This document shows positions 10,752 to 61,384 of a DNA stretch of 64,000 bases, piece by piece. Each line of letters begins with the position of its first letter. The stretch's first letter is position 1. The notes beneath the pieces were generated by a model. That model saw nothing but the letters and a program-made list of their open reading frames with translations, ran no database searches and was not told the DNA's origin. The DNA comes from a virus. The position numbers were made by a program, and so were the translations under genes. Location: positions 160,001 to 224,000 of the IMG/VR virus record IMGVR_UViG_3300012642_000011. The stretch is one strand, 5' to 3'.

Positions 10752-10856
10752 TAGTTGGTGCTCCATTGTATAAGATAGTGATCACATTATGTGAAAACTT
10801 TTTAATTTATATCAAAGAATTCTAATACTAATATCTTATTCATTTATAATCTTTTC

Positions 10857-42285: not shown

Positions 42286-42299
42286 TATCGCACACCTAT

Positions 42300-42332
42300 A
42301 GAAAAACCCCCAATTATTTGGGGGTTTTTCTT
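42300..42332 (+). terminator. rho-independent terminator
   Basis: AAAAACCCCCAA-ttatt-TGGGGGTTTTT followed by CTTTGC. Confidence 0.75.
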
Positions 42333-42438
42333 TGCTCTAAAGTATAATTCTTTAATTATTTATTTCTGATATTTTTGATTGTAACTTTACAATAAAGTTA
42401 TAACTGTTTCCATGGAACTACTAACAGGAATTGATAAC

Positions 42439-42750
42439 ATGAAGAATTTCTTTAACAACATTGAGTCTGTTATCGCTGCATCCAAGGCTCAGGAAGAGCA
42501 GGATCGCGCAGACCTCGTACAGACAATCATCATCATCGCCGGATTCGCAATTGCTGCAATCGCAGTTGTTGGTTGGATCTCAACCGCTCTCTTCGGAATC
42601 GGTGCTGACACTGCTAGGTGCATCACTGGTGTACAGACATATGGCGGATCAGCTGCTACAACACAGGAGAACTGTGAGGCTCAGGGTAACGCTGCGAAAG
42701 CTGATGGTCAAATCACTAATGACGCAGCATACAAAGGCCGCTTTGGCTGA
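42439..42750 (+). CDS. Flp/Tad-type prepilin (fifth paralog, first gene of the Tad-like locus)
   Basis: MKNFFNNIESV...DRA|DLVQTIIIIAGFAIAAIAVVGWISTALFG is homologous to the four tandem paralogs at 8.9-10.8 kb; start set by homology (the ORF track starts at 42412). Confidence 0.6.
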   Translation: MKNFFNNIESVIAASKAQEEQDRADLVQTIIIIAGFAIAAIAVVGWISTALFGIGADTARCITGVQTYGGSAATTQENCEAQGNAAKADGQITNDAAYKGRFG

Positions 42751-42816
42751 TACCAATAAAGGTCAGGGACTGGTTCATCTGATCTGAAGTTTCAGAGACT
42801 CATCTGAAATAAATAA

Positions 42817-42850
42817 GAGAATCCCACTCTATACGGGTGGGATTCTTTTA
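42817..42850 (+). terminator. rho-independent terminator after the pilin gene
   Basis: GAGAATCCCAC-tctatacg-GTGGGATTCTTTT. Confidence 0.65.
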
Positions 42851-42996
42851 TGCCCAATTACCATTGAATTAATTTCTCACAAGAAAACTCTGATCAGAAA
42901 AATAGAAAGAAAACCAGAACGAATCTCTTAGTAAATAAAAGGATATGTTGATATTTCACAACATCAGGATAAGACAAGACAAAAGGACAAAAGACT

Positions 42997-43902
42997 ATGG
43001 ACTACCCTCTCATCATTGGCATACTCGTTGCTCTGATTTTTATCATCATAATGTATGAACTGCTTGTCCCCAAGTCAACTAGAGGACTAGTCTTCCATGA
43101 TGAGAATGCCTTCAATAAGAACCCCATTATGAAAGGATTTGCTGCGTTCGGAAACGAACTCTACACAGCATTACCTGAAGGTGTTCAAGTGGGCAACAAA
43201 GAGCGATACCCTCTCATCGAAGAATTAATTGTCAAATCAGGCAACCCATGGAACATCAACGCAAGAGAATACAAGATGATGCAAATCGTCCTTGCCGTCG
43301 TCGGTGCCATTGTCGGCGTTGCACTCTGGGCATCATTATACTTTGCACAAGGATTAACATGGTTACCATGGTGGGCATGTATTCTCGCCGGTACTGGATT
43401 GGGTTACATCACACCACACTCCAAGTATAAAGAACAAGCCAACCTCAGAGACCTTGAATTCAGAAGGCAACTACCAGAAGCCCTAGACCTTCTCATTATC
43501 ACTGTTGCATCAGGAGCCACAGTAGTCAACGGAATGAAGAACATTCTCCCTGACCTTCAGCCTGGCGTGGTTAAAGAAGAGTTCAAAAACATTGTCACCC
43601 ACGTTGAATCAGGTGGATCATTTGATGCTGCACTAGAAAACCTTGCTCTCAGAGCACCCAATGATGGTGTGGAAACATTCGTCAGGGCGCTTCAGGAAGC
43701 CAACAAGAGAGGATCAGACACTGTGGAGATCCTTGAATCCAGAGCAGAAGAATCCCGAAAAGATTTCTTCACGCTTCTAGAAAAGAAAGTTGCTACACTT
43801 TCCAGTAGGGTATTTATGATCCTCACGCCTACACTTATGCCCGCAGTTATGATTATTGCTATTGCACCATCTGCTGCATCACTTGCCGAGTCCCTTGGAT
43901 GA
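42997..43902 (+). CDS. TadB/TadC-like platform protein (T2SS-F domain)
   Basis: N-terminal TM, soluble GspF-like domain, two C-terminal TM helices; position next to the TadA-like ATPase. Confidence 0.55.
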   Translation: MDYPLIIGILVALIFIIIMYELLVPKSTRGLVFHDENAFNKNPIMKGFAAFGNELYTALPEGVQVGNKERYPLIEELIVKSGNPWNINAREYKMMQIVLAVVGAIVGVALWASLYFAQGLTWLPWWACILAGTGLGYITPHSKYKEQANLRDLEFRRQLPEALDLLIITVASGATVVNGMKNILPDLQPGVVKEEFKNIVTHVESGGSFDAALENLALRAPNDGVETFVRALQEANKRGSDTVEILESRAEESRKDFFTLLEKKVATLSSRVFMILTPTLMPAVMIIAIAPSAASLAESLG

Positions 43903-43913
43903 TTGGAGAAGAA

Positions 43914-46625
43914 ATGAAGAAATCTATTTTTGACCGTAAGAACAATGAAAACGATAGGGACAGAGGAACCATTGGATCACACCATGATGACCCTATGAGC
44001 GAAACCACAGATGCCCCACGACGCACCACTGGACTGCCTACCAACATCAGCAAGGACTTTGTTGAAATGCTCAATGATGATGCCAGTATGAAAGAGGCAT
44101 CAGAGAAAAGAAAGCAAAGAATTCTTTCATCGCATGATAACGATCCTGTAGCAAAGGCCATTCTTGAACAAGAAGGAAGATTAAAAGAGAAGTATGCTAT
44201 GGGAGGCGCAAGAGCAAAAAGAATACTCACTACAGACATCCTCATTGATGCTCCTAAAGATTATTTCACCAAGTACTATGACTTCGTAGCGAAAGCCGTC
44301 AGTGAGGCCAGAGAAGCCATCACGGCTAGAGGATTCTCCGATCACCTTGCTGATGCACTTGACAACCCCGCTGACGAGAAAATACAAGAAGAAACATACA
44401 GGAAGATTGAAGGAATCATTTCTGAGAAAATAGAAAATTCTCCCTTCACATCTACTATTGATACTCTCATCATTAGAACACTTGCCATTAACGATATCAT
44501 GGGATTCGGAATCATTGACCCATTATGGAGAGATAAAGAAGTATCCGAAATCATCATCAATGGACCTTACGATGTGCAAATTGAAAGACACGGAAAACTT
44601 TCTCGTGTGCCAGGTGCTCAATTCATTGACACTGCGCACCTCTATGACCTTATAGAAAAAATCTATAGGACGACAGGTAAAATGCCTTCTGCAACTTCTC
44701 CTCTCGTCAAAGGAAACCTCCCCGACAAGTCACGTGTCTTTGCTGTGGACACTTCAATTGCACCTGCTGGACCCAACCTCAGCATCAGAAAGCACCCTGA
44801 AAGATACTGGACTCCTGAAGATATGGTGAAACTTGGGTCTGCCAGCGAAGAACTCATGACTTACATAGGAAACCTTATTTACAAGGGCGCATCAGTTCTG
44901 GTTGTAGGCGGAACACACTCAGGAAAAGCACTGACACTTGACACTTTGATCAACACCCCACAAGGTCAAATCTCCATGAATGACATCAAAGAAGGAGATC
45001 AGGTCATTGATCATAATGGCATCATCGGAACTGTGCAAGCAAAGTATCCACAGCCTGCACGTCAAGTGTATGCTGTTGTCTTCTCCAATAAGGAAGTCGC
45101 ATTCTGTGATCTTGAGCACAATTGGTATGTCTATGATACTGATGGTCAATCACATGTAATGACCACAGAAGAAATCATTAACAGCGGAATCAGCAACGGT
45201 GAAGGAGAATACAAATTCAGTATACCATCATTGTCTACCCCTGTAGAATATGAATCAGGAATGACTCCTGATGAATTCGCACATCATCCCTACAAGATAG
45301 GCATTTCAGTTGGAAGAAAATGCGCTCTTCCTGACTACTTAAATGACATTGATTCCCCAAACAATAACAAGTACAGGGCAAACCTCGTCCAGCATGGTAT
45401 TATTGAACGCACTGAAAGCATCGAGAAAATAAAGATCAATGCTGACAGGTATGTTGGCCCACACCACATTGAAGACCAATACAAATTCTCCTCTGTGGAA
45501 TCAAGAAGGCACCTTCTTGCAGGATTAATTGACAGCATTGGATACAGCGGCAACTCCACAGGAACATGGAACCTTAAAGTTACCTCTGAAACACTGGCAT
45601 CTGACATTCAATTCATTGCGTCCTCTCTTGGATACATTGTAGAAATCTGCACTGCAAAGAAAGAAAGTTACGTTCAAGAGGGTACACGAGTTGAAGATGT
45701 AGAACTCTGGGAAGTTAAGATCAATTCCTCAGAAACTCTTGGATACAGCCATATATGGGAAACAATGATCGAAGAGATGGACATTGAGCATCAAGCAACC
45801 AATGTCAACATTGTTTCTATTCAACCCGTTGAGGGAAGAGTTGAGGAAATGGCATGCATCACTGTGGACACACCAGAAAACACCTATACTATAGGCAATG
45901 GGTTTACCACTACTCACAACACTACTCTCCTCAATGCATTCACAGGGTTCTATAAGAACACAGTAAGAATTGTCACCATTGAAGATAACATCGAAATGAA
46001 GCCCAACCCCAAGAAAATGTTGGCTCAAGCCATGGAGACAAAACCTGCATCAAGGAGTTCAAGTTCTACACCTGTAGAGATGACAGACTTGGTAAGGGCA
46101 TCTACACAGATGAGACCTGACGTAATCATTGTTGGTGAGGTTACTGACCAAAGCGCCCTTGACCTCATGGAAGTCATGAATACAGGTCACGCCGGAGCAT
46201 CCACTGTCCACGCTAACACTGCAGGCACATCCGTCAACAGAATGATTTCTCTGGCAAAGAAATCACAATTGGTTGACTACCAGGCAGCACTGGATATGTT
46301 TGCACAGGCATTTGACATCATTGTTGTCACACAATATTCCACTGTTGACCATTCAAGAAGGATTGTGAATGTCTCAGAAGTGGGACATAGACCTACAATC
46401 ATTGATGGTATCCCTACAGTTGAAACCTACCCACTATGGAAGTTCGTCAGCAGTGGAAGAGATGCCAATGGAAAGATTCAAGGAGATTGGGTAAAAGTAC
46501 AAGATATATCTGAAAGAAAGAAAGAAGACAAGAACTTGAACATGGAAGAAGATCTCACATGGGAACAATTGAAAGAAATCAGTAGCATCCCAGAAGAGAT
46601 GCAGCCAAAAATCGAAGATGACTGA
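43914..46625 (+). CDS. TadA/CpaF/KlbA-family secretion ATPase interrupted by an intein (aa 344-674) with a LAGLIDADG homing endonuclease
   Basis: Walker A is split: VVGGTHSGK | ALTLDTLINTPQG...LLAGLIDSIGYSG...IGNGFTTTHN | TTLLNAFTGF. The exteins join to GGTHSGKTTLLNAF. The intein starts with Ala and ends HN before Thr. Confidence 0.75.
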   Translation: MKKSIFDRKNNENDRDRGTIGSHHDDPMSETTDAPRRTTGLPTNISKDFVEMLNDDASMKEASEKRKQRILSSHDNDPVAKAILEQEGRLKEKYAMGGARAKRILTTDILIDAPKDYFTKYYDFVAKAVSEAREAITARGFSDHLADALDNPADEKIQEETYRKIEGIISEKIENSPFTSTIDTLIIRTLAINDIMGFGIIDPLWRDKEVSEIIINGPYDVQIERHGKLSRVPGAQFIDTAHLYDLIEKIYRTTGKMPSATSPLVKGNLPDKSRVFAVDTSIAPAGPNLSIRKHPERYWTPEDMVKLGSASEELMTYIGNLIYKGASVLVVGGTHSGKALTLDTLINTPQGQISMNDIKEGDQVIDHNGIIGTVQAKYPQPARQVYAVVFSNKEVAFCDLEHNWYVYDTDGQSHVMTTEEIINSGISNGEGEYKFSIPSLSTPVEYESGMTPDEFAHHPYKIGISVGRKCALPDYLNDIDSPNNNKYRANLVQHGIIERTESIEKIKINADRYVGPHHIEDQYKFSSVESRRHLLAGLIDSIGYSGNSTGTWNLKVTSETLASDIQFIASSLGYIVEICTAKKESYVQEGTRVEDVELWEVKINSSETLGYSHIWETMIEEMDIEHQATNVNIVSIQPVEGRVEEMACITVDTPENTYTIGNGFTTTHNTTLLNAFTGFYKNTVRIVTIEDNIEMKPNPKKMLAQAMETKPASRSSSSTPVEMTDLVRASTQMRPDVIIVGEVTDQSALDLMEVMNTGHAGASTVHANTAGTSVNRMISLAKKSQLVDYQAALDMFAQAFDIIVVTQYSTVDHSRRIVNVSEVGHRPTIIDGIPTVETYPLWKFVSSGRDANGKIQGDWVKVQDISERKKEDKNLNMEEDLTWEQLKEISSIPEEMQPKIEDD
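44928..45920 (+). other. intein coding segment (331 aa, class with Ala1; LAGLIDADG endonuclease) within the TadA-like ATPase P-loop
   Basis: Block A ALTLDTLI, LAGLIDADG-like LLAGLIDSIGY, block F/G ACITVDTPENTYTIGNGFTTTHN; +1 residue Thr. Confidence 0.65.
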
Positions 46626-46634
46626 TGAGAACCA

Positions 46635-46680
46635 AAGGCAGGTTGTCAGCACTAATCGCTGGCAACCTGCCTTTTCGTTG
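46635..46680 (+). terminator. rho-independent terminator after the ATPase gene
   Basis: AAGGCAGGTTGTCAGC...GCTGGCAACCTGCCTT followed by TTCGTTG. Confidence 0.6.
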
Positions 46681-46748
46681 ATATATAAAATGAGTTGATT
46701 TCATCTTGAAATCCCCCAATACGAAAACGAGAAAAGGTTGACAAAGAC

Positions 46749-47711
46749 ATGACATTAGATCAACTATTACCCTACATCATCGCAATTCTTTCAGGATTAC
46801 TGGTGGTCGTAGTAGCCTATGCTGTTCAGAAGTATCTTAGACAAAATTCCCTTGATGAGAACTTTCAAGCACAATTTGAAGCAATCACAAGAGATCCTGT
46901 TGACGCTGCCGATGAAGAACTTCTTCAAAAGGAAAAAGGACTGTCCATATTGGACAGATGGAACAGAGGATGGGACAGGAGTTTTAAAGCAGCAGGATTC
47001 AAGAGGTATGCTGAAGACCCCAATAGAGCTGGAACAGATATGCTCATTCTTTCCCTCATACTCATGGTTGCAGCATCAATCTTTGCCAAGAACATTCTTG
47101 CTGGTGTCTTTGGTGTCGTCATTGGAATGTCCATTGTCGGAATGATGGCAAGAAGCGCAGCCAATAAGAAAATTGCTAGAATTGATGAACAACTCAATGG
47201 ATTCCTTTTCTCATTCAAAGCCAACATTCAATCAGGAATGTCAAATGAAATCTCCTTTATCAACATTGTAGACAAGACAAAAGATCCACTTAAAAGCGAA
47301 CTCATACCTGCTAAAAATGATATCTTGTCCAGCAAAGGATTCGTGACATCCCTCATGAACCTCAGAGCGCACACCCCATCAAAAGATCTTCAGTTCCTTT
47401 GCTCATGTCTTATTCAGGGAACACAAAGCGGATCTGGATTAGAAAACCAGATCGACAAAATCCAAGATGTCATGAAATCAAGACGAGATATCAATAATAA
47501 GATTGAAGTTGCCATGAAGGAACCCCAACCAGCCATCTGGTTGTCCAGCTTCATCCTCCCTGCCCTCTTCATCTACTCCTATACTACAAGCCCACCCGGA
47601 TTTTGGTTCGTCAACCCTTGGTCATGGTTAGCATTGGCAGGCGTTGCAATTCTTTACTTCATTGGCATCTTTGTCATGAGAAAGATGGTGGATAAGATCA
47701 AAAACTTGTGA
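46749..47711 (+). CDS. second TadB/TadC-like platform protein (T2SS-F domain)
   Basis: N-terminal TM, central soluble domain, C-terminal TM pair. Confidence 0.5.
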   Translation: MTLDQLLPYIIAILSGLLVVVVAYAVQKYLRQNSLDENFQAQFEAITRDPVDAADEELLQKEKGLSILDRWNRGWDRSFKAAGFKRYAEDPNRAGTDMLILSLILMVAASIFAKNILAGVFGVVIGMSIVGMMARSAANKKIARIDEQLNGFLFSFKANIQSGMSNEISFINIVDKTKDPLKSELIPAKNDILSSKGFVTSLMNLRAHTPSKDLQFLCSCLIQGTQSGSGLENQIDKIQDVMKSRRDINNKIEVAMKEPQPAIWLSSFILPALFIYSYTTSPPGFWFVNPWSWLALAGVAILYFIGIFVMRKMVDKIKNL

Positions 47712-47758
47712 ATAAAACAGTTGATCATAAACGCCAAAAATCAAAGAAAGAGTAAACA

Positions 47759-48316
47759 ATGAAAACAAAAGAATTCCTTTTCACCATCCCAGCAAAGAAA
47801 ATCATCAACTCAAACCAATCTATTCACTTGATGGTCAAATCACAAAGAAGCGCATACCTGAGAAAGATCTCTCAGGATGCCGGTGCTTACGAGCACACTC
47901 AAAAAGAAGAAGCACAACAGTACTTAGATCGTAACAGGGGATTGCAAGAAAGAAGCAATAAAAAGGGATCAGTTACAAAGAAGATGAAGAAAGCAAACTG
48001 CACACCAGAAGAAATTGCAGAAGCAATGGAAGACATTGATAGGACGTTCCCTATTGTTGATACTCCCTCTGGACTTGAATATGAATTCAAAGGAAGATTT
48101 GAAGCAACCTGTATCATACATACTCCCACCAAAAGACACATAGACCCACCAAACCTATGGCCTACAGTAAAACCCCTCCTTGACGGGCTGACAGACAGTG
48201 GGTGGTGGGAAGACGATGATTCTACCAGATTGGTCAGAACCTCTTTTGAAAGAGGGGAGAACTCAACTTCTAAAGGGGACTACCAAATCACCATTATCAT
48301 CAAAGAAATTTCTTGA
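47759..48316 (+). CDS. RusA-like Holliday-junction resolvase (tentative)
   Basis: RHIDPPNLWPTVKPLLDGLTDSGWWEDDDSTRLV resembles the RusA core D.DN..K...DAL.....DD. Confidence 0.4.
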   Translation: MKTKEFLFTIPAKKIINSNQSIHLMVKSQRSAYLRKISQDAGAYEHTQKEEAQQYLDRNRGLQERSNKKGSVTKKMKKANCTPEEIAEAMEDIDRTFPIVDTPSGLEYEFKGRFEATCIIHTPTKRHIDPPNLWPTVKPLLDGLTDSGWWEDDDSTRLVRTSFERGENSTSKGDYQITIIIKEIS

Positions 48317-48376
48317 TGATATCAATGAAAAGATACTTAACTAAGACGTAAACAAAGAAGCGGAGAGAATGCCACC

Positions 48377-48847
48377 ATGGAAAAGAACTATATTACGGTC
48401 CAAATGTTCACCGATTTCTTCAACAGGAAGAGATCGATGTATGCAATTGGTGACGTTCGCCTTCCTGCACCCATCCCATTGGCATTCATGGGATGGTTCG
48501 TAGGTGGCTTAATAATTTACTCTATACCTCTGTTCCTTTTCATTGGCATAGAGAACATGTCCCTCATCAACCTTGCTATAATTCTTGGCCCACCCATTCT
48601 TTTTGCATCCATTTCGAGCAAACCTATTTTTGGAGGAAGAAGTTTCCTCGGTTTTCTCAAGTATGCTTTCTCTTACATCACATCACCTAAAGGATGGATT
48701 GACACAGAAGGATATTACAGTAAAGAGGAAGGCAATTATGTAGTCAATTCATACATCTGGATCAGCCGAAGAAGAGAATTCTATCGACTTGCCGAACTTG
48801 AAGATGAGGAAAAAAGAGCTAAAAAGAAAGATCAATCTAATTCATAA
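48377..48847 (+). CDS. membrane protein, hypothetical
   Basis: Two or three TM helices, basic C-terminus. Confidence 0.45.
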   Translation: MEKNYITVQMFTDFFNRKRSMYAIGDVRLPAPIPLAFMGWFVGGLIIYSIPLFLFIGIENMSLINLAIILGPPILFASISSKPIFGGRSFLGFLKYAFSYITSPKGWIDTEGYYSKEEGNYVVNSYIWISRRREFYRLAELEDEEKRAKKKDQSNS

Positions 48848-48914
48848 TACACTGAATCATAAATAAAAATTCTATTAAATAAAATTATTTTTCCCCAGTT
48901 AAGGAGAGATTATC

Positions 48915-50111
48915 ATGACAGTAAAATCTACCAGCCTACTCATAGGACAGACAAGCAGAGGCGTAAGGAACCCCGTCCCCTTTGACTTACACACCCCCAT
49001 AAGGAACAATCAACCACCGGGATGTGTCATCACCGGAAAACCAGGATCGGGAAAGACATACCTCCTACAATTGCTCACAACCATGTCAGCGCTGCTTGGT
49101 AAAACAACTATCGTTATTGACCTTAAAGGCGACTTCCTCAACCTGAAGCCTATTGCTGACGAAATCGGAGTAGATGCAAGATTCATTGACATTGCGAAAA
49201 AGAAAGGCGCTCTAGACCCCTTCTACATCGGAGAAAACCCAGGAGACAAACTCAGCCTTATTCTTCAAGTCATTGATACACTTGTTGGTGGCATCACACG
49301 AGATGAATCCACACTGCTCACACCAGAAATCCGAGACCTCATCCAAGCCAGTGAAAATAAAAGAAACCAGATATCACTAACCAATGTTGTCAGCAACCTC
49401 CTAAGATCCACACATAAGGATCTTGTGAACATTGGATCAGAATTAGAATCCATCAGCACACTACCCTATGCTAATCTTCTCTTTGCACCAGGTGGCGGAG
49501 CAAAAAGCAAAATTAATTACTATAAAGGTCTAACCATCTTCCCACTTATAGGACTCAAACTTCCTAACGAAGAGGACTTTGATGAAAATAATTCAAGGAG
49601 ATCAGGCGCTTCAACAAACATCAACGAAAACCTCTCATCAGCAATCATGCTCATGCTCACAGAAGTTGTTTCAAGACTCATGATGAGAGAAACGCCAGAA
49701 CCAAAGACACTGGTCATCGATGAGGCATGGGTATTGGCATCAAACAAATCAGGACAGGAATGTATTAAGAAAATCGCACTTCTAGGAAGAAGCAAGAATA
49801 TTGCTCTCGTCATGGGATCACAGAAGAACTCCCACTACAGTAATTTCGACATTGATGTGACAATCTCCACGAGATTCTGCTTCAAAACAAGTATCAAAGA
49901 AGCAGAAATGCTTGTTAAAGAAATGCAACTACCTGAAGAAGAAGGTTTTGAAAACAACCTCACAGAACTCCAAACAGGAGAATGTCTCATGATGGACTGG
50001 AAAGGAAACTACTCCACAGTACAAATCAAAACCATTAAATCATCATGGCATTACTACTTCAGAAGCGACCCACAAAAGGACGCCGCAATAAGAAGATCCA
50101 AAGGAAAATAA
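48915..50111 (+). CDS. P-loop NTPase of the HerA/FtsK/VirB4 (DUF87-like) clade
   Basis: Walker A GKPGSGKTYLL near the N-terminus; Walker B LVIDEAWVL about 250 aa downstream; arrangement typical of VirB4/HerA-type ATPases. Confidence 0.5.
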   Translation: MTVKSTSLLIGQTSRGVRNPVPFDLHTPIRNNQPPGCVITGKPGSGKTYLLQLLTTMSALLGKTTIVIDLKGDFLNLKPIADEIGVDARFIDIAKKKGALDPFYIGENPGDKLSLILQVIDTLVGGITRDESTLLTPEIRDLIQASENKRNQISLTNVVSNLLRSTHKDLVNIGSELESISTLPYANLLFAPGGGAKSKINYYKGLTIFPLIGLKLPNEEDFDENNSRRSGASTNINENLSSAIMLMLTEVVSRLMMRETPEPKTLVIDEAWVLASNKSGQECIKKIALLGRSKNIALVMGSQKNSHYSNFDIDVTISTRFCFKTSIKEAEMLVKEMQLPEEEGFENNLTELQTGECLMMDWKGNYSTVQIKTIKSSWHYYFRSDPQKDAAIRRSKGK

Positions 50112-50164
50112 TATGATATTGATTTCATAATGTCTGCTTCACAATACATTCAAAAGGATAAAAA

Positions 50165-51139
50165 ATGAAAAATAAACTCGGCACGAAAAGCGCCAACACA
50201 AACCTCATTATATGGATCGTCGTCCTTCTCATTGCGCTGGCAATCATGTTCCTCGTCGCACTTGTCATGAGGAACGCCACAGAAACAGACCAGTTCTACG
50301 TACTGAACACACCAGTGGCAGCAAAGAGTCAGATCACACCAGAAATGCTTGAACCAATGAACGCAGTCAAAGACCAAGCACCACCTAATGCTCTCGACAT
50401 TGGTGACATTCAAGCAGGTGGAATCTACGCTCAATACCCACTGAACAAGGGTGACATTGTCTCAGGATCAAACGTATCAGGATTCACAGATATCTCAACA
50501 GGAATCCCAGATAACTGGGTTGTCACCAACTTCGCAGTAAGCCCAGACAACGCTGTTGGCGGTAGAATCACCCGAGGCACATACTTCGACATCATGGCAT
50601 ACGATAAAGACAAGGGAGCATACTACCCCTTCGTCAACGTACTTGCACTTGACACCACTGTATCCACCAACAGCCTCTCCAGCGCACAAGCAATTGACAG
50701 CCCAGAGGCACAAGACGGACAGACACAACAATACTACGTTGGCATGTCACCTCAAGATGCAGGAAAACTTCAAGCACTCATGTCATCAGGAGACCAGATC
50801 AAACTTGTCCTCTCCCCACGACAGAATGAGTACCAGAACCCTGACCTCAACGCTTACAAGGGATTCTTCAAGTACGAGAATGACAAGGGTGAAGCCATCT
50901 GGCCAGGTAAGTCTGCAGGAGGAGAAATCACAGACTACACCTTCTCAAAGGTCGAAAGAGATGAATTCGGAAGGCCCCTACAAGGACCAGACGCTGGTAG
51001 CATAGGAAACGCTGGAATCCCAGCAAACGGAAACTCAACCGCGCCAACAGAGGACGCTCCTGAGGAATCCGCAAGCCCATCAGCATCTGAATCCACACCT
51101 ACTGAAAGCGCAAGCCCATCAGCAAGCCCCACAAGTTGA
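50165..51139 (+). CDS. CpaB/RcpC-like Flp pilus assembly protein (SAF domain) with Ser/Pro/Ala-rich C-terminal tail
   Basis: N-terminal TM anchor, SAF-like region (QITPEMLEPMNAVKDQAPPNALDIGDIQ), low-complexity ESASPSASESTPTESASPSASPTS tail. Confidence 0.5.
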   Translation: MKNKLGTKSANTNLIIWIVVLLIALAIMFLVALVMRNATETDQFYVLNTPVAAKSQITPEMLEPMNAVKDQAPPNALDIGDIQAGGIYAQYPLNKGDIVSGSNVSGFTDISTGIPDNWVVTNFAVSPDNAVGGRITRGTYFDIMAYDKDKGAYYPFVNVLALDTTVSTNSLSSAQAIDSPEAQDGQTQQYYVGMSPQDAGKLQALMSSGDQIKLVLSPRQNEYQNPDLNAYKGFFKYENDKGEAIWPGKSAGGEITDYTFSKVERDEFGRPLQGPDAGSIGNAGIPANGNSTAPTEDAPEESASPSASESTPTESASPSASPTS

Positions 51140-51156
51140 TAGGGAATAAGTAAAAT

Positions 51157-51190
51157 AGGCGGGATGCTCATGTCCCGCCTATTTTGTTGC
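51157..51190 (+). terminator. rho-independent terminator
   Basis: AGGCGGGA-tgctcatg-TCCCGCCT followed by ATTTTGTTG. Confidence 0.65.
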
Positions 51191-51398
51191 TTCTAAACTG
51201 AACGAATATGCTAAAATCATCATAATACAACTCTTGATATGAATCATTGGATAGCAAATAAAAACACACATAAATTAAGAACAAGACATTTAAAATAAAT
51301 ACAGTCAAGGATTCAAGCAAGAAATCACTGGACTCAAAAGAAAGAACAGATATTCACTTATAGTAAAACTGTTCGATGTAAAGACGAGAGGGAGAGGC

Positions 51399-52775
51399 AT
51401 GGTTAACAAGCCCAAAGCAGTATATATAGGACCACCTAAGATCGGTGCTGCAATTATGAAAAGAGTGACAGAATGGTCATTCGTTTACGCAGACTCCACC
51501 ATACAAGGGTTCACAGACAAACTGGACAATGATGAGATCGACAACGACATACAATGTATTCTCATCCACGATTCCCTCTACGTGCCCACAGCAGACAACT
51601 CTCCACAGCCATTCAACGTGTTTGCAGCACAGTACTCACCCTACTGCTTCTTCGGCATTCTAGAGTACCATGAGAACTACACACCAAGGATCAAGGAAGG
51701 CGTCTCATCCATCCTCAGCAACATGACAGGAGAAGATGAAACAGACCTTTACTTCATCTCAAAAGAAAACTTCAAACCAAGGCTCATCTCCAAAGTAGAA
51801 AGCTACATCTCCAAGCACGATAATGAAGTTGCCGCAATACTTGCAGGAAGAGAACCACAAAACATTGTTGACGAAGAAATCGAAACACGAAAAAGAGAAA
51901 TCGAAGACAACAATCACAGGATCGAAGAAGCCAAGTCCAAGTACCAATCAGGAGACCGTGACGGAAAAATCATTGCCTGCACCTCATCCAAGGGAGGATC
52001 AGGAAAATCAACCATCACACTTCTACTTGCAACCTACCTTGCTCATTCATCCATCCAATCTGTCAAAGACGGAGCAGAAAAAGAACCTCTCAAAATCTGC
52101 GTACTCGACCTTGACACCAAGGACGGGCAAATAGGATTCATCACAGGTGCTGTCAAGCCAACCATTACACATCTACAACGACATGGCATCACCAAAGAGA
52201 CAGTTGAACAAACTGCCATCTTCAACGACAGGCTCAAGGTTGACCTCTTCCTTGCTCCACAACGACTGCAAACAGCATTAGAGATCGAAGCAGGATTCTA
52301 CCAAGAACTCATAGCATTCCTGAGAACACAGTATGATTACGTCATCCTCGACACCTCAGTGAACTACTACGACCCCCTCCTTGGACAAGTCGCCTACCCC
52401 ATGGCAGACTTCATCATTTTCGTCACAGACATCGTGATCAACTCCATCTTCTCCATGAGCAGATGGATCACCAACGTCACCATGCCCATTGAGCGAAAAG
52501 GACTCGGAATCCCCAAAAGGAAAATCGGTATCATCATCAACAAAGCATCTACTGGTGTAAACATGCCACCAGAAAGAATCAGCAGCTTTGCAAATGGTGT
52601 CAGAATCATCACCGCAATCCCATCACAAGCCAAACTAATGGCAAACGCAGCCAACACTCAATCAATGGACCAAGCACTCAGAGACCCAACCATTAGAAAA
52701 CGAATAAGGAAGATCGCACAAGGCGTAGCAGGAAGAAACTACAAACTTGCCGAAAACTTCGCCATTGGTAGATAA
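51399..52775 (+). CDS. CpaE/TadZ-like ParA/MinD-family ATPase
   Basis: Deviant Walker A IIACTSSKGGSGKSTITLLLA with an N-terminal receiver-like region, as in CpaE/TadZ. Confidence 0.6.
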   Translation: MVNKPKAVYIGPPKIGAAIMKRVTEWSFVYADSTIQGFTDKLDNDEIDNDIQCILIHDSLYVPTADNSPQPFNVFAAQYSPYCFFGILEYHENYTPRIKEGVSSILSNMTGEDETDLYFISKENFKPRLISKVESYISKHDNEVAAILAGREPQNIVDEEIETRKREIEDNNHRIEEAKSKYQSGDRDGKIIACTSSKGGSGKSTITLLLATYLAHSSIQSVKDGAEKEPLKICVLDLDTKDGQIGFITGAVKPTITHLQRHGITKETVEQTAIFNDRLKVDLFLAPQRLQTALEIEAGFYQELIAFLRTQYDYVILDTSVNYYDPLLGQVAYPMADFIIFVTDIVINSIFSMSRWITNVTMPIERKGLGIPKRKIGIIINKASTGVNMPPERISSFANGVRIITAIPSQAKLMANAANTQSMDQALRDPTIRKRIRKIAQGVAGRNYKLAENFAIGR

Positions 52776-52793
52776 CAATTAAATACACGACAC

Positions 52794-52837
52794 GCAGAGG
52801 GGCCACTGATAACACTTGCTATCAGTGGCCCCTCTGC
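52794..52837. terminator. bidirectional terminator between convergent genes
   Basis: 18-bp stem GCAGAGGGGCCACTGATA / TATCAGTGGCCCCTCTGC. Confidence 0.7.
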
Positions 52838-52868
52838 TATGAACTCAACCATCAGGAAAATCTCAAGA

Positions 52869-54416
52869 TCAAGACTCACCACGCATGATCTTATTGAACA
52901 ATTCCAAATTGGGAGCATAAGAAGCCGCAACCTCCAAAGTACAATCATTCTTCCTCACAGCATTAGCTAAAGCATGCTCCATCGTCAACCCATTCCTAAT
53001 CATATATTGTTTAATAGACCACGTATCACCCTTCAAGATCATGGGCCTGATCTCATCAACAACAGGAAGAGCACAAGATACACTAATCAAGTTACCATTC
53101 TTCTTAGAAGGAACCAATACCTGATTCACCACCCCAATCAACTGCTCATTCAAAGAAGTCAACACCGTCTGCCTCTCCTCACCAGAATACTGAGCAATAA
53201 TTCTCGTAATAGCAGTCTCAGGACTATCAACGTGCATAGTAGACATAGAAAAGTGACCAGACTCAGCAGCCCTCAAAAACTCATCGACCTCAGACCTATC
53301 CCTAATCTCACCCACCATAATCATCTGAGGATGCTGACGCAAAGCACCCTTGATACCATCAGCAAAAGTCCTCAAATCAGTACCCAACTCCCTCTGAACA
53401 ATAAGACCTGCAGAATCATCAAAAACATACTCAATAGGATTCTCCAACGACACAATCTTCTTCGGATCTCTTCTCAAAACCTCATTCACAATAGAAGCAA
53501 ACGTCGTTGACTTACCGGAACCAGTAGCACCACACACCAAAACCATACCAGACGCCCTCTTCACCCACTCCAAAAGATAAGGATGAACACCAATCGCTTC
53601 AGGAGTAGGAATCTTAGAATTAATAATACGGAACGTCATATCCGGCGAATCACTAGTATGAGCAATATTCAACCTCGTCCTCACACCCCTATGCCTACCA
53701 GAATTAATCACATAAGCAGTATCAGCACCACGATTCTGAGCAAACTCACGCCTCTTCACATTACTGACAATCTCCGTCAAAAACCTTTCCACAACAGACA
53801 CAGGAATAACCCCGAAATCATTATAAGAACTCACTTTCTTATTAATCGTCAACCACACAGGAGCATCAGGCTTAATATGCACATCAGAGGCACCCTTATC
53901 AATCCCAAAAGCAAGAATCTCATCAATCTTTATATGAGCATAAGGATCATCTTCTTCATCATCGTCATCCTCATCAAAATAACCCTCAGAAGGATCAAGA
54001 GAGGCACGAGAGAGAATAGCATCCAGATCTGAATCAACTACACCACCACCTGATGAAACCCTCTCAGAATCGCTCTCAGGCTGTTCTACAACACCACCAT
54101 CCCTCAGAGCCAAAATGCTCTCAAAGTCATCCTCATCATCATCGTCATCATCCTCAACGATCTCTACAACCTCTTCCTCAACATCAATATTAGTATCCAT
54201 ATAGACATCAGCAGGAGAACGAGAAAGATCAACAGGAGTATCATCATCAGGCAAATCATCATCCTCATCAGAATCAAACGTAGAATTAATGATTTCCGTC
54301 TTATCCAAAAGACTCTGCTCCCTCAAAGCAAAAAAATCATCATCAGAAAACTCATCATTCTCATCTGGAAGATCATCATTCTCATCAGGCAAATCATCAT
54401 CAAAAGAAAAACTCAT
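52869..54416 (-). CDS. PilT/PilB-like (GspE-family) secretion ATPase with an acidic repeat N-terminal extension
   Basis: ASDVHIKPDAPV, Walker A VLVCGATGSGKSTT, Walker B MIMVGEIRD; N-terminal repeats DDLPDENDDLPDEND and poly-D/E. Confidence 0.7.
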   Translation of the reverse strand: MSFSFDDDLPDENDDLPDENDEFSDDDFFALREQSLLDKTEIINSTFDSDEDDDLPDDDTPVDLSRSPADVYMDTNIDVEEEVVEIVEDDDDDDEDDFESILALRDGGVVEQPESDSERVSSGGGVVDSDLDAILSRASLDPSEGYFDEDDDDEEDDPYAHIKIDEILAFGIDKGASDVHIKPDAPVWLTINKKVSSYNDFGVIPVSVVERFLTEIVSNVKRREFAQNRGADTAYVINSGRHRGVRTRLNIAHTSDSPDMTFRIINSKIPTPEAIGVHPYLLEWVKRASGMVLVCGATGSGKSTTFASIVNEVLRRDPKKIVSLENPIEYVFDDSAGLIVQRELGTDLRTFADGIKGALRQHPQMIMVGEIRDRSEVDEFLRAAESGHFSMSTMHVDSPETAITRIIAQYSGEERQTVLTSLNEQLIGVVNQVLVPSKKNGNLISVSCALPVVDEIRPMILKGDTWSIKQYMIRNGLTMEHALANAVRKNDCTLEVAASYAPNLELFNKIMRGES

Positions 54417-54488
54417 CCCAACACCACCTCATATATACAATAAAGACAAAAACTTCTCATCATCTATTATCAACCACAAAAAGACAAA

Positions 54489-56540
54489 TCAAATCTTCCA
54501 CAAATCATTCCCCTTGAAAACACCATCCTCAGTAATCACAGGAACAATAGAAATCTTCCTCTTCTGAAAAAGATTAATCGTAGCCTTCTTAGCAATAGAC
54601 TCAAGCTTCATAGCAGCACCACGTGAATGACACACCCACACAACCTTACTATAAATCCTCTCATCATCAGCATAAGCCCTCAACGTTCGCTCATAACTAG
54701 CAGCATCCTTATTAGCAATCTCCACCTCAACAGCAATAGAACGCGGAGAACCATCAGCAGCACGAGGACGTGCAATCACAAGATCAGGAACATGATAAGA
54801 AGAACGCGTCGCCCTCTGCCTAGGCAACAAAGTCCACATAAACTCATTACCCGGCATCATCTCAGGAGAAGGAATTCTAGCACGATCAGAATGAGACAAC
54901 CACGTTTTAAAATCCGCATCCATCCTATTCATGATCTTCGGACGAAAATCATCAGCAACCTCAGTACCCCTCAACCTCGTCAAAGAAGACTGAATCTGCA
55001 ACTCCGAAACCAAATTCTCACCAGAAACACGATTACCACTCACATCAATCCTGTTATCAGAAGGAAAATCATTCAAATACAACACATTCAAACCACCACT
55101 CCACAAATGAGCAGCAACATGATTCGTAGTAAACGTATGATTAAACATAGAATACGTCACACCACTCTTCAACGTCCTCTTCACATCAAGACCAGTCAAC
55201 AACATACCAGCCTCAGTCAAATACCACACACTACCAACATGATAAATCTTCTGCCTCGTCACCAAACCCTGCTTCAACAATTTACCCATTCTCAAATTAG
55301 TCTGATTCTGCTTCGTATTCACCAAAATAGAAATATTCCTCGTCGTAGCATACTTAAACATAGCCAAAAATCTCAAAACCTCAAGATCCTTCGCATTCAC
55401 ACCAGGCAACATCCTACCCTTCTTAAAAGCATCCTCACCCTCAACAATCTGCTCCAACACCCGCACAGCCCGCACACCAGAACCATCCCTCTCCAAAGCC
55501 TTCTGAGCAAACCCCCTCACATCAGGATCATTACGCAACTTATTCACAGAAGAATTCAACCTCTTAAAAAAGTCCACCTCCTGCTCAGCCAACCTCATTC
55601 TAGAACCATCAGAACGCTTCCTACGCACCCTCTTCTGAGCACCAAAAATAATCTCCGTCTCACCATCACCAGAACCAGAATCATCCTCAACAACCATCTC
55701 AAAAGCATCCCTCGACCTAAACTCAGTCTGAGAATCCTGCACGCCAACCTTCTTATGATCATCCGACACAACAACATTAGACTCTAAGAAATCATCCCGA
55801 CGAGCACTCTTCCTACTACTCTTCTTCCTCTTCTCAGTAGCAGACCTCCTAAACTCATCCAACTCCTCACGATGCACCCTAGCCTGAGGAGTCTCAGGAA
55901 CATCCTCCGACAACACATCAGCCAACACATCACGATCCACACCAATAGCAGAATCACCACTAGGATCAGAAACAGCATCAACACCAGAAACAGAAGCATC
56001 AGAAGAAATCACATCAGTAAACTCTTCATCATCCTCATCCTCAAGGAAAAAATCAGACTCCCCATCATCAGAATCATCCTCATCCTCAACAACCAAATCA
56101 GAAGACCCACCAACAACATCATCAACACTTCCCTGACCAGAAGAAACACCCACTGAATCATCAACGCCAACCAAAGCAGACCCCATAGGCAAAGAAGGCA
56201 ACGCATCACCAGAATCAGAAGAAATCACATCAGTAAACTCTTCATCATCCTCATCCTCAAGAAAGAAATCAGACTCCACATCATCAGAATCGGAAATCAA
56301 ATCACCCTCAAAATCAAAATCATCCTCATCAAAATCCTCCCCCAAAGATTCACGCATACGAGCAATCTCCTGACGCATCAAAGCATCCTGCTGCATACGA
56401 TTCTTCTCCATCTCAGCCCTCAACTGATCAGGAGTCAACACAACCTCATCATCCTCAAAAAAGAAATCAGACTCCCCATCCACAGAATCATAATCCGAAT
56501 CACCAAAAGAAGACATACCCCTAGGAATCATCACAATCAC
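54489..56540 (-). CDS. large acidic repeat protein with a C-terminal globular domain (possible wHTH + PD-(D/E)xK-like)
   Basis: Repeated DFFLEDEDDEEFTDVISSD modules; the C-terminal 330 aa is non-repetitive with ...VPDLVIARP...IAVEVEIANKD. Confidence 0.55.
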   Translation of the reverse strand: MIVMIPRGMSSFGDSDYDSVDGESDFFFEDDEVVLTPDQLRAEMEKNRMQQDALMRQEIARMRESLGEDFDEDDFDFEGDLISDSDDVESDFFLEDEDDEEFTDVISSDSGDALPSLPMGSALVGVDDSVGVSSGQGSVDDVVGGSSDLVVEDEDDSDDGESDFFLEDEDDEEFTDVISSDASVSGVDAVSDPSGDSAIGVDRDVLADVLSEDVPETPQARVHREELDEFRRSATEKRKKSSRKSARRDDFLESNVVVSDDHKKVGVQDSQTEFRSRDAFEMVVEDDSGSGDGETEIIFGAQKRVRRKRSDGSRMRLAEQEVDFFKRLNSSVNKLRNDPDVRGFAQKALERDGSGVRAVRVLEQIVEGEDAFKKGRMLPGVNAKDLEVLRFLAMFKYATTRNISILVNTKQNQTNLRMGKLLKQGLVTRQKIYHVGSVWYLTEAGMLLTGLDVKRTLKSGVTYSMFNHTFTTNHVAAHLWSGGLNVLYLNDFPSDNRIDVSGNRVSGENLVSELQIQSSLTRLRGTEVADDFRPKIMNRMDADFKTWLSHSDRARIPSPEMMPGNEFMWTLLPRQRATRSSYHVPDLVIARPRAADGSPRSIAVEVEIANKDAASYERTLRAYADDERIYSKVVWVCHSRGAAMKLESIAKKATINLFQKRKISIVPVITEDGVFKGNDLWKI

Positions 56541-56544
56541 ACCT

Positions 56545-58040
56545 CACACTAGAATCCCATATACATATAAGATCACAACAATCAACCCTGAACAAAAACA
56601 ATCCCAACAGAAAAATCCAAGATCACGTAATTGAACAGATCAATGTATTGTAACAAAAATAAACCTACCACAACGCAAAAATATACAGCGCAAACTCCAC
56701 ACCACCAACCAAAACAACACCCTCACACAACCACACCACAATACCCAAAACAGACCATCCTATACTTTAAAATAAATAAATAAAAACAGCCAACAACGCA
56801 CACTCAAGCCAACAAACCCACAACCAACATCCAAAGCACCACAATAGACAAACACCACCTACTACACCAAACCATTAAAACAATCAGTACTAAGAACACC
56901 CACACAACAATAAACTTCATAAGCACACCACAACAACCAACAACACTCAAAGACACAAGAACACAAGCACACAAGACAACCAAGCACACAAAAGAAATAC
57001 ACCAGCAGCGCACATAACCTGAGCATAGACATCAAAGCCAAACCACGATTACAAAAACACAAATCAACCCAAAGCCACGCACACACAAAACAAAAATGTA
57101 TAAATTAAAACCTAAAATCAAACATTCAAAACACCAAAACAACGCACACCAAGACTACAAAGAACACAAACAAGCGCCCAAAACCGCCAGTATAAAATCC
57201 CACAACACACAACGTGCTATACAAACCAACCCAACACAAGCACACAAAACAAACTCTTCTACACTATAAAACTACACAACCCAACCTCAATCACGCAACA
57301 CAGTCATCACAATCAAAGCCCAAAAACAAACCTCAAAGACTCCACAGCCCAACCTAAAAACCATATAACCTAAACCAAAAACAACACAACTGAACCTAAA
57401 ACTTTACAACAAGACACTACACAGACAGAAAAATAACTCATTAAAACCTTAAAACCAATCACCACAAATTTTAAACCCAAGCATCACAAACTCCAAAATG
57501 ATGCAACACAAACCTTAAACCAAGTATTAAAAACCGCATGGCACAAAATACAAACTTTAAAATCATGCCTCACAAACTTTAAAATCGCGCCTTACAAAAC
57601 CGCACCACACATATTACAAACTTTAAAACCACGCAACAGAAGACAAAACAACCACGATACAAATACATACTACAGAACACAAACACAGTCAAACCAACAC
57701 TGCAAACACACCCAAACCAATACTTTCAAACATTCAAATCAACTTCGCCAAACACCTAAACTAACACCGCCAAACAATCAACACCAATACCCAAACAACA
57801 CCCTAAAACAAAAAACAAACACTCCAAAATAAAAATCAACAATGAAAACACTACTACACCAACAATGAAAACGCTACTACTACAACCAGAAATAAATCAA
57901 AATTATCAACACCCTGTGCAAAACATGATTCCCAACCCAAAAACCCCAATAACAACACTAAAAAATAGGAAAAAATAGAAACCATTCGAAAACGAATATA
58001 AAAATAGAAACCAGGGTACAAACCAGGTTTTACTGTCAAA
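56545..58040. repeat. 1.5-kb G-depleted A/C-rich non-coding tract with embedded 22-23-nt periodic ACAAACTTTAAAAYC repeats (57455-57640)
   Basis: The + strand is almost entirely A and C with no ORF of 60 aa or more. ACAAACTTTAAAATC occurs at 57550, 57572 and 57616, with related units upstream. Confidence 0.8.
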
Positions 58041-58041
58041 A

Positions 58042-58063
58042 GATTTCAGAAGCTTCTGAAATC
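58042..58063. promoter_or_regulatory. 22-bp perfect palindrome GATTTCAGAAGCTTCTGAAATC
   Basis: Exact inverted repeat centred on AAGCTT at the junction between the A/C tract and the DnaA-box cluster. Confidence 0.6.
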
Positions 58064-58126
58064 CTTTGTATCAAAAATCATAATTATCAACAATCCCGCT
58101 CCCGCCACACCCAGAACTACTTCTTC

Positions 58127-58178
58127 TGTGGATAACTAAACAACGAATGTGGATAAGAATACTTCTACATGTGGACAA
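58127..58178. promoter_or_regulatory. cluster of three same-orientation DnaA boxes (TGTGGATAA x2, TGTGGACAA) at 21-22-bp spacing; candidate origin of replication
   Basis: TGTGGATAA at 58127 and 58148 is the reverse complement of the consensus DnaA box TTATCCACA; TGTGGACAA at 58170; a TTATCAACA variant sits at 58084. The cluster lies at the A/C to G/T strand-composition switch. Confidence 0.55.
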
Positions 58179-59810: not shown

Positions 59811-59820
59811 GATCGTGGGG

Positions 59821-61382: not shown

Positions 61383-61384
61383 GG

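Follow-up and report, generated by a model that had tools for sequence, protein, structure and literature searches.

A Tad-pilus locus interleaved with VirB3/VirB4-type genes as a candidate transfer module of an Inocle-like giant element

Extrachromosomal elements of the Inocle type are common in human mouths. A locus in the IMG/VR virus record IMGVR_UViG_3300012642_000011 raises the question of whether such elements encode a transfer apparatus of their own. We analysed positions 160,001 to 224,000 of this record, a stretch of 64,000 nucleotides (nt) that is called the window below and to which all coordinates refer unless a relative is named. The locus combines genes of a Tad pilus with genes for a TcpE-family membrane protein and a short VirB4-type ATPase, and is followed by the genes of a Replic_Relax-like protein and a PilT-clade ATPase that lie beside an origin-like region. 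An initial annotation, made from the sequence alone, had taken it for an undescribed hybrid system for DNA uptake or transfer, or for phage-like DNA delivery. We read the locus, with middling confidence, as a chimera of a Tad pilus and a minimal type IV secretion apparatus that serves as the transfer (mating) module of a giant Inocle-like element. It is a concrete and testable candidate, and the best one we have, for how elements of 0.25-0.8 Mb move between bacteria.

Domains were checked with Pfam, NCBIfam, PHROGs and PDB profile searches and with one structure prediction. All open reading frames (ORFs) of the initial annotation are present as it gave them, and the gene that it had labelled only as a membrane protein encodes a member of the TcpE family. 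TcpE is the VirB3 homologue of Gram-positive type IV secretion systems (T4SSs) (PMC12857230), and in every relative its gene directly precedes the VirB4-like gene. The product of the latter gene had been placed in the HerA/VirB4 clade, and it stays there: in addition to its AAA_10 domain, it aligns to positions 467-807 of the 813 positions of TcpF (5e-28), which is the C-terminal half, and its PDB profile matches are the VirB4 C-terminal domain 4ag5 (6.7e-8) and the HerA-like protein YjgR. The protein corresponds to the C-terminal motor domain alone, with 398 amino acids (aa) against the usual ~800 aa. Its family comprises 88 clusters, nearly all of 364-415 aa and one of 320 aa, on contigs of up to 828 kb. 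In IMG/VR the family occurs on contigs of 75-420 kb, and the exact protein of the window is also encoded on a 332-kb ENA contig and on others of the 0.2-1 Mb class; a two-pattern scan of GTDB species genomes did not detect the family. Two sets of matches were rejected as kin. The proteobacterial GTDB matches (L007-L011) extend only to the ATPase, at 22-25% identity, and to none of the other locus proteins, and the nearest plasmid VirB4, from Nocardiopsis (29% identity), belongs to an ordinary full-length T4SS with no Tad genes.

Relatives of the locus were compared with it by tblastn and jackhmmer searches against fetched loci, and through gene tables obtained by exact-protein look-ups. The conserved order is g326 - pilin(s) - TadB - TadA - TadC - (RusA) - TcpE - VirB4 - CpaB - ParA. 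It recurs in at least seven diverged relatives, among them the loci L012 (GC content 48%), L013 (56%), L014 (28%), L021 (on an 828-kb contig), L023 and L024 (the 300-kb contig JAHZTR010000020.1 of GenBank assembly GCA_020054605.1), which upholds the earlier supposition that the Tad core is syntenic with the VirB4-like and RusA-like genes, except that the RusA gene is missing from L023. The proteins of these loci are 30-57% identical to those of the window, their contigs are 35-828 kb long, and the GC range of 28-56% was measured for L012-L014. Upstream, the block is preceded in relatives by DnaX-GyrA-YdjM(-RadA), and orthologues of g326 lie upstream of the module in L012-L016, L018, L019, L021 and L023. 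In the window, the genes from 41305 to 52775 form an operon-like string on one strand, with intergenic gaps of -4 to 259 nt. Because the gene order is conserved in diverged relatives, the cluster is more than a chance adjacency, and functional coupling is suggested by a VirB3/VirB4 pair that has kept its place between TadC and CpaB in loci so far diverged.

Other relatives show which genes form the constant part. An IMG/VR lineage with a GC content of ~30% (L015, L016, L018 and L019), which probably represents the published Inocles, keeps g326, TcpE, VirB4 and ParA, has genes for a thymidylate synthase (fusion) and DUF3882 where the window has Tad genes, and carries a homologue of the 683-aa Replic_Relax-like protein 16-18 kb from VirB4. 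The ParA/MinD-type gene is thus also present where Tad genes are absent. In L017, pilins and a T2SSF platform lie beside TcpE/VirB4, while TadA and ParA were undetected; with the exception of this ParA, the TcpE-VirB4-ParA block is present in every relative examined. The core common to nearly all relatives therefore consists of TcpE-VirB4(short)-ParA and the Replic_Relax-PilT pair, and the Tad genes frequently join the former block as an interleaved module. Genes for SecA and a TET-associated glycosyltransferase are found nearby in the ~30% GC lineage.

Table 1. Features of the locus and its surroundings in the window, with the evidence for each
Feature	Position	Strand	Evidence or description
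Second pilin-like paralogue	10404..10766	-	120 aa; leader ending DRG, then DLVQMVIIVAGFAIAAIAIV; 51% identity to locus pilin
g326	41305..42285	+	Conserved soluble protein, opens conserved block; follows strong hairpin
Pilin-like protein, candidate for an Flp or a mini type IV pilin	42412..42750	+	Sequence features, position, conservation
TadB-like platform, one T2SSF domain	42997..43902	+	PF00482, E 1.3e-15
TadA/CpaF-family ATPase with intein	43899..46625	+	T2SSE 1.4e-28 and Hom_end
TadC-like platform, one T2SSF domain	46749..47711	+	PF00482, E 2.2e-7
RusA-fold protein, 185 aa	47759..48316	+	PHROG_34 2.8e-16; RusA top in PDB family-profile search, 0.009
TcpE-family small membrane protein	48377..48847	+	PF12648, 7.5e-14
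Short VirB4/TcpF-type ATPase, 398 aa	48915..50111	+	AAA_10 7.8e-46; Walker A GKPGSGKT
CpaB/RcpC-like protein, N-terminal membrane anchor, Ser/Pro/Ala-rich C-terminal tail	50165..51139	+	TIGR03177 1.4e-9 (below cutoff); RcpC PF16976 0.003
ParA/MinD-type ATPase, 458 aa	51399..52775	+	AAA_31, CbiA and MinD matches
PilT/DotB/TraJ-clade ATPase, 515 aa, acidic N-terminal extension	52869..54416	-	pilT_fam 6.8e-77
Replic_Relax/MobC-like protein, 683 aa	54489..56540	-	Acidic repeat N-terminus; winged helix ~nt 55218-55394; PD-(D/E)xK-like core ~nt 54540-55013
Non-coding A+C-rich stretch	56541..58000		+ strand 77-84% A+C over 1.5 kb, no ORFs
DnaA-box cluster, candidate replication origin	57903..58178	-	Two perfect TTATCCACA boxes, three one-mismatch boxes
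Five iterons GGGTGTGCGCAYA	58421..58787	+	Spacing 65, 67, 129, 81 nt

The 683-aa protein had been described as an acidic nuclease-like protein with a C-terminal PD-(D/E)xK-like domain. In support of this, 56 diverse members of its family keep an E...PD...ExE(K) signature with little or no variation, and the predicted alpha/beta order fits a PD-(D/E)xK core; fold searches, however, returned the winged helix alone and no nuclease fold, and the family matches that of Replic_Relax/MobC proteins. A word-indexed search with the C-terminal 354 aa found 14 relatives, two of which have a precomputed PF13814 assignment, and 6 of 15 individually scanned members match PF13814, two of them above the gathering score. 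An exhaustive profile search extended the family to 1330 representatives (237 at E<=1e-30), and PF13814, matched by 13 of the 56 diverse members, is by far the commonest family among them. The protein of the window itself falls under every Pfam threshold, and BLAST searches of PLSDB with its C-terminus and with the most PF13814-like relative gave no match. PF13814 (Replic_Relax) equates to the superfamily of MobC relaxases (PMC5357655), and PD-(D/E)xK nucleases are relatives of MobC (PMC12857230). Judging from these sequence comparisons, the 683-aa protein appears to be a member of a divergent Replic_Relax/MobC family and is the probable counterpart of the Inocle marker InoC. Because its gene adjoins an origin-like site, the protein may act as relaxase, as initiator or in both roles.

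Directly downstream of the 683-aa homologue, a PilT-like gene was found in 10 of 10 loci checked, and the two genes are also paired in L024. The PilT-like protein covers positions 2-340 of the 343 of TIGR01420, with 259 bits against a cutoff of 319, and also matches TraJ (4.5e-45) and DotB (3.8e-37). The initial label of PilT-like was thus reproduced, while the retraction role then assigned to it has to be revised: since it pairs with the Replic_Relax gene, and not with the pilus genes, even in lineages without detectable Tad genes, it more probably assists the relaxase-like protein, as a partner of the VirB11/TraJ/DotB type, than drives Tad retraction. Short acidic/aromatic motifs (DDLPD, DDWDD and SDFF[FL]ED) are found repeatedly at the termini of the PilT-like protein (52869-54416), the Replic_Relax-like protein (54489-56540), p145 (40476-40913), p449 (26187-27536) and an FtsK-like protein (29850-30905), and the N-termini of PilT or Replic_Relax proteins of relatives show 'NPF(L)DDDD'. 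This recurring motif may be a shared docking motif.

The ~3.3 kb of non-coding DNA between 56.5 and 59.8 kb, on the other side of the Replic_Relax-like gene, show an extreme, mirror-image strand composition, in which G and T are nearly missing at first and A and C thereafter. At the DnaA boxes, the + strand switches from ~82% A+C to ~70% G+T; beyond the switch it is 61-74% G+T, and the skew runs on to ~60.5 kb in a region of small genes. The perfect boxes, on the - strand at 58127-58135 and 58148-58156, are 21 nt apart from start to start and are the only perfect ones in the 64 kb; one of the one-mismatch boxes is on the - strand and two are on the + strand. Repeats of the AAACTTTAAAA type with a phase of 22 nt occupy 57444-57641. 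In L024, the same flip in composition is found directly upstream of the 683-aa homologue, but the repeats there are others and a perfect DnaA box is lacking, and the iterons thus differ between the window and this relative at the equivalent place beside the Replic_Relax-like gene. By its composition and repeats, the region resembles an origin of bidirectional replication whose iterons are specific to the element. The iterons at 58421-58787 are also candidate nicking sites (origin of transfer, oriT).

If the locus is a transfer module, the Replic_Relax-like protein would bind the element-specific iterons and nick or process the DNA, acting as a relaxase that might double as an initiator. The PilT-clade partner ATPase and a membrane-anchored TcpE/VirB4 hexamer would power the movement of DNA through the cytoplasmic membrane. 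Gram-positive type IV secretion systems of the ordinary kind assemble the envelope and contact part from VirB6, VirB8 and a cell-wall hydrolase; here the Tad platform and pilus would replace these undetected components as the envelope-spanning, recipient-contacting part. The ParA/TadZ-like protein might position the machine, and RusA, where present, could remove branched DNA before or after transfer. A further-reaching proposal is that the Tad filament apparatus replaces the VirB6/VirB8 channel, that the TcpE-anchored, motor-only VirB4 docks on TadB/TadC, that the pilus is a conduit or harpoon for replicons of 0.25-0.8 Mb, and that the whole is the near-universal transfer organ of an overlooked superfamily of giant elements of which the oral Inocles are one branch. 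We regard this proposal as doubtful.

Several observations weigh against transfer as the function of the locus. To our knowledge, transfer of any such element has never been observed. Searches with Pfam, NCBIfam and PHROGs found no VirB6-like channel, VirB8/TcpC-like protein or cell-wall hydrolase in the 64-kb window, and no VirD4-type coupling protein was found there either. The N-terminal domain of VirB4 normally docks the protein to the channel, and the VirB4 of the window is without this domain. No hidden Markov model of Pfam or NCBIfam, that of Flp included, matches the pilin-like protein. A prepilin peptidase of the TadV/CpaA, Peptidase_A24 type, for which the initial annotation had advised a search, is not among the window ORFs scanned or read; the host, or another part of the element, could supply its gene. 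The ~30% GC lineage has no gene for Tad proteins, RusA or CpaB within 10 kb, and its contigs are not among the results of a TadA scan of IMG/VR, so the Tad part is dispensable for whatever the core does. Given its origin-like neighbour, the 683-aa protein could also be a replication initiator rather than a relaxase. The sole FtsK_SpoIIIE ORF of the window (29850-30905) was considered as a coupling protein. It has kept Walker B and, as noted initially for this FtsK-like pseudo-ATPase 13 kb upstream, has no Walker A; it is unlinked to the module in relatives and lies outside the locus, and was ruled out on the grounds of the missing Walker A and the missing synteny.

The same observations can be set against other explanations. 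One operon could serve two unrelated functions, with the Tad genes making an adhesive or colonisation pilus for the host, as in Bifidobacterium and Aggregatibacter, and with TcpE/VirB4/ParA and Replic_Relax/PilT handling the DNA of the element. Tad pili are classically adhesins, a lineage with the VirB4 and Replic_Relax blocks shows no Tad genes nearby, the Inocle paper stresses cell-surface functions (PMC12340149), and the authors who described a Cutibacterium acnes (C. acnes) plasmid leave a functional link between tad and conjugation genes open (PMC5696575). We nevertheless find this separation unlikely, because the VirB3/VirB4 pair is not just adjacent to the Tad genes but nested between TadC and CpaB/ParA, and has been kept there in at least seven loci over deep divergence, and because L017 retains pilins and a T2SSF platform beside TcpE/VirB4 although TadA is undetected. 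The core might also maintain the element: the Replic_Relax-like protein would be an iteron-binding initiator, and ParA and a membrane-anchored HerA/FtsK-type VirB4 pump would partition or clear giant DNA at division. Such a role would suit a gene that abuts DnaA boxes, iterons and a composition switch in the window, with the same arrangement in L024, and whose family occurs universally and in what looks like a single copy, as was also described for InoC (PMC12340149); ParA is moreover linked to VirB4 in nearly all relatives, and VirB4 falls within the FtsK/HerA pump clade. However, partition would have no use for a pilin, two T2SSF platforms, a CpaF-type motor and CpaB, pairs of TcpE and AAA_10 proteins are not known outside conjugative systems (PMC12857230), and PF13814 proteins are classed as MobC relaxases (PMC5357655), all of which makes maintenance an improbable function for the locus as a whole.

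Import of DNA into the host of the element is a third possible use of these genes, in which the Tad pilus would capture DNA, as in Micrococcus luteus, the PilT-type motor would retract it, and VirB4 would act as in the ComB system of Helicobacter pylori. A PilT-like ATPase is present, a passage of one paper names Tad pili as needed for M. luteus transformation (PMC5696575), and ComB is a type IV secretion system that serves uptake (PMC12857230). Still, the window has no ComEA, ComEC or DprA genes, the PilT-like gene tracks the Replic_Relax gene and not the Tad genes, and uptake would not need a relaxase-like protein, so that we consider it very unlikely. Finally, IMG/VR files the relatives as viral contigs, the tRNAs, tmRNA and CCA-adding enzyme of the window recall those of huge phages, and RusA is typical of phages, all of which would fit a locus for virion-related DNA delivery or superinfection control in a huge phage. 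We found no evidence for the phage-like delivery suggested initially. No capsid, portal or tail family was matched among the scanned larger ORFs of the window and its relatives, the one match labelled as terminase links the VirB4-like protein weakly, through its P-loop, to a PHROG (2.9e-9), and published Inocles are enriched in the cell pellet and were judged plasmid-like (PMC12340149); a phage function is scarcely credible.

For a transfer apparatus of the kind we favour, the Tad genes would provide the filament and its assembly platform. The two TadB/C-like platforms and the intein-bearing TadA-like ATPase of the initial annotation were reproduced, by T2SSF domains in the former and by T2SSE, Hom_end and TIGR03819 in the latter. 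TIGR03819 (TadA family conjugal transfer-associated ATPase) is the best NCBIfam match of the 908-aa ATPase, at 3e-47 and under the equivalog cutoff, and its top plasmid matches, at ~31% identity, are annotated as CpaF. The intein, delimited by alignment of orthologues, has 331 aa (aa 344-674, nt 44928-45920) and interrupts Walker A between GGTHSGK and TT; it begins with Ala, ends in HN before T, and is absent from four orthologues. Inteins are frequent in the P-loop ATPases of this element family. The PilT-like gene of L012 (16761-19844 of that locus) holds a Hom_end insertion, an insert in PilT-like genes of the ~30% GC lineage (L049, L051, L052 and L062, at ~4430-5400) resembles the TadA intein of the window, and the TadA genes of L025, L026 and L033 also appear to carry inserts.

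The protein encoded by 42412-42750, whose second Met codon is at 42439, where the locus was initially taken to start, had been called a prepilin. It lacks a profile match, as stated above, and the call rests on its sequence features, position and conservation. In an alignment with seven homologues, its polar leader closes with DR[G/A] and is followed by a hydrophobic helix of ~25 aa, and a pair of Cys is conserved; it has Q (E in relatives) at +4/+5 and no EY, and lacks the G/XXXXEY motif of Flp. The place of the gene upstream of TadB is conserved in relatives. Its product thus reads as pilin-like and not as a canonical Flp. The second pilin-like paralogue of Table 1 sits 32 kb from the Tad genes. 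Of the calls made initially for CpaB and for a CpaE/ParA-type ATPase, the latter rests on a clear ParA/MinD domain, whereas the CpaB match is weak and below the cutoff. The ParA/MinD-type ATPase has a deviant Walker A (KGGSGKS) and an N-terminal domain of 180 aa that we infer to be TadZ/CpaE-like; the protein has no match in PDB. For g326, no similarity was found in Pfam, PHROG or PDB. Just upstream of g326, a hairpin with a perfect stem of 15 bp is followed by a T-rich tail (41204-41238), and probably marks the start of the transcription unit that holds the Tad/VirB4 genes.

The RusA-like call is also sustained as far as the fold is concerned, because PHROG_34, the PDB profile search and structure prediction agree. 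An AlphaFold2 (AF2) model (pLDDT 87) has RusA structures as its top 7 Foldseek matches, with E from 2e-6 to 4.5e-5 and TM(target) of 0.57-0.69. The catalytic Asp triad of E. coli RusA reportedly consists of D70, D72 and D91, in work ascribed to Bolt et al., 1999. Like the resolvase, the protein of the window has the fold and the core motif, with invariant equivalents of D70, K76 and D90/D91; unlike it, the protein has a helical insertion of ~70 aa, an invariant Pro at the position of D72, and a context in a pilus/T4SS operon rather than in a phage. Because of this Pro, catalysis is uncertain. A RusA-fold gene is present in L012, L013, L014, L021 and probably L024, and since L023 is without one, RusA is optional in the locus.

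The locus is part of an element that resembles Inocles, giant circular elements of oral Streptococcus with lengths of 245-395 kb, GC contents of 24-32% and four described taxa (PMC12340149). Inocles have a core of polymerase III, gyrase and exonuclease genes, and their marker InoC is a PF13814 protein that is single-copy and universal among them (PMC12340149). 'VirB4 and VirD4' were reported in all Inocle contigs, and horizontal transmission was proposed; pili, Tad genes and operon structure are not mentioned in that paper (PMC12340149). The window has DnaE, GyrA, a PDDEXK exonuclease and a gene that is InoC-like in the sense of a PF13814-type relationship. It appears to have in common with Inocles contigs of 245-420 kb and more, the polymerase III/gyrase/exonuclease core, a single conserved PF13814-type marker, VirB4 and samples of oral or Human Microbiome Project (HMP) origin, and the oral/HMP contigs with ~30% GC have backbone synteny with the window. 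On the other hand, the GC content of the window is ~41% as compared to 24-32% in the published taxa, which rules out exact identity with these; relatives reach 56% GC and 828 kb, and the Replic_Relax protein has 683 aa as opposed to about 454 aa. We conclude that the window comes from an Inocle-like giant extrachromosomal element that belongs to none of the four described taxa. An origin in a Saccharibacteria (candidate phyla radiation) genome, which the contigs of 0.5-0.8 Mb had suggested, was dropped, in view of the failure of the two-pattern GTDB scan to detect the short VirB4 and of the Inocle-type backbone, and a genomic island integrated at the tmRNA gene was set aside, as replication genes follow the tmRNA and the whole window is of one style. 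The host of the element is probably single-membraned (monoderm).

Nearly all genes up to 52.8 kb are on the + strand, and the window also encodes RadA, NadR/PnuC and a CCA-adding enzyme. DNA polymerase III alpha (DnaE) is divided over two ORFs, with the PHP domain and first part at 20910-22397 and the remainder at 23496-26183, and a DnaX/clamp-loader-like gene (22360-23487) lies between the two halves. The RNA genes are seven tRNAs, a tmRNA and one borderline signal recognition particle (SRP) RNA (6297-6383). A tRNA-like gene at 2822-2898 has an apparent 4-base anticodon (caag), the tRNA at 3138-3221 is Cys according to ARAGORN and tRNA-Sec according to Rfam, and the tmRNA (19395-19741) carries the tag ANSAKNDFALAA. 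An IS607-type pair at 175-2372, comprising a serine resolvase with a MerR-type helix-turn-helix and TnpB with a Cas12f1-like TNB domain, agrees with the insertion sequence-rich nature reported for Inocles. From 59800 to 64000, the GC content rises to ~52% in a region of small - strand genes and tiny membrane proteins, which may be acquired or hypervariable. Three paralogues in it (61385-61846, 62000-62467 and 63186-63638) have no match in phage or plasmid collections and therefore give no clue to the host.

Among known systems, the closest in concept are the Gram-negative elements PAPI-1 and IncI R64. PAPI-1 has a type IV pilus and VirB4/VirD4, and a chimeric use of the filament with VirB4 has been proposed; R64 has a thin type IVb pilus and a Dot/Icm-like T4SS with the TraJ ATPase, and its transfer is assisted by the pilus (PMC12857230). 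As in these elements, the window encodes a pilus of the type IV filament superfamily along with VirB4 on a mobile element, where it is used or proposed for DNA transfer, and a PilT/DotB/TraJ-clade ATPase is present. They differ in their Gram-negative hosts, type IVb pili, full-length VirB4, VirD4, and separate pilus and T4SS clusters, whereas in the window VirB3/VirB4 is nested in a Tad operon, VirB4 is the motor domain only, and no VirD4 was found. A Gram-positive precedent is the large C. acnes plasmid, whose tad locus lies beside FtsK-, VirB4- and TcpC-like genes and whose authors asked about a functional link; a related 40-kb clostridial contig was noted alongside it (PMC5696575). This too is an extrachromosomal element with Tad/Flp genes beside conjugation-type genes, but it measures tens of kb, its loci are adjacent yet distinct, and it encodes a complete VirB4, a TcpC/VirB8-like protein and a translocase of the FtsK type, as opposed to the giant element, interleaved genes and undetected channel parts seen here.

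The individual parts can be compared in the same way. The systems of mating-pair formation class FA (MPF-FA), such as Tcp of pCW3, ICEBs1 and Tn916, likewise have a TcpE-family VirB3 gene just upstream of an AAA_10/TcpF-type VirB4 gene (PMC12857230), although in the window VirB4 is of half length and TcpH/VirB6, TcpC/VirB8, the TcpG hydrolase and TcpA were not detected. MobC relaxases, including TraX of pAD1 and MobC of CloDF13, appear to resemble the 683-aa protein in a PF13814-type winged helix, a PD-(D/E)xK-like core and conserved acidic residues; they are set apart from it by its scores below the Pfam thresholds, the lack of BLAST similarity in PLSDB, its long acidic repeat N-terminus and its origin-like neighbour. 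With monoderm Tad/Flp systems, as in Bifidobacterium and Micrococcus luteus, the locus shares split TadB/TadC, a CpaF/TadA motor and the absence of a secretin, and it has candidates for a CpaB-like protein, a TadZ-like ParA and a small pilin. It departs from them in that neither TadV nor TadE/F pseudopilins were found, in that the pilin-like protein has a Cys pair and no G/XXXXEY motif, and in that its operon holds the foreign genes RusA, TcpE and VirB4.

Measured against these precedents, only part of the initial proposal of an undescribed hybrid system stands. The conserved fusion of Tad and VirB3-VirB4 genes is real and DNA transfer is its best reading, but such combinations of type IV filaments and VirB4 have precedents in PAPI-1, R64 and the C. 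acnes plasmid, so the locus does not found a new category. A search of the available literature returned no paper that joins Tad, VirB4 and TcpE. The novel points are that TcpE and a VirB4 reduced to its motor are nested within a Tad operon, that a MobC-like protein is constantly paired with a PilT-clade ATPase beside an origin-like site, and that both arrangements are conserved in a family of giant elements far broader than the one described so far. That family, extended beyond the four Inocle taxa to GC contents of 28-56% and to lengths of up to 828 kb, could be recognised by the TcpE-VirB4-ParA and Replic_Relax-PilT blocks as markers. If the parts of the locus work together, VirB4 would be able to work without its N-terminal domain and the usual channel proteins, and the system, whose host is probably Gram-positive, would parallel, with a Tad pilus, the chimeric conjugation by pilus and VirB4 that has been proposed for PAPI-1.

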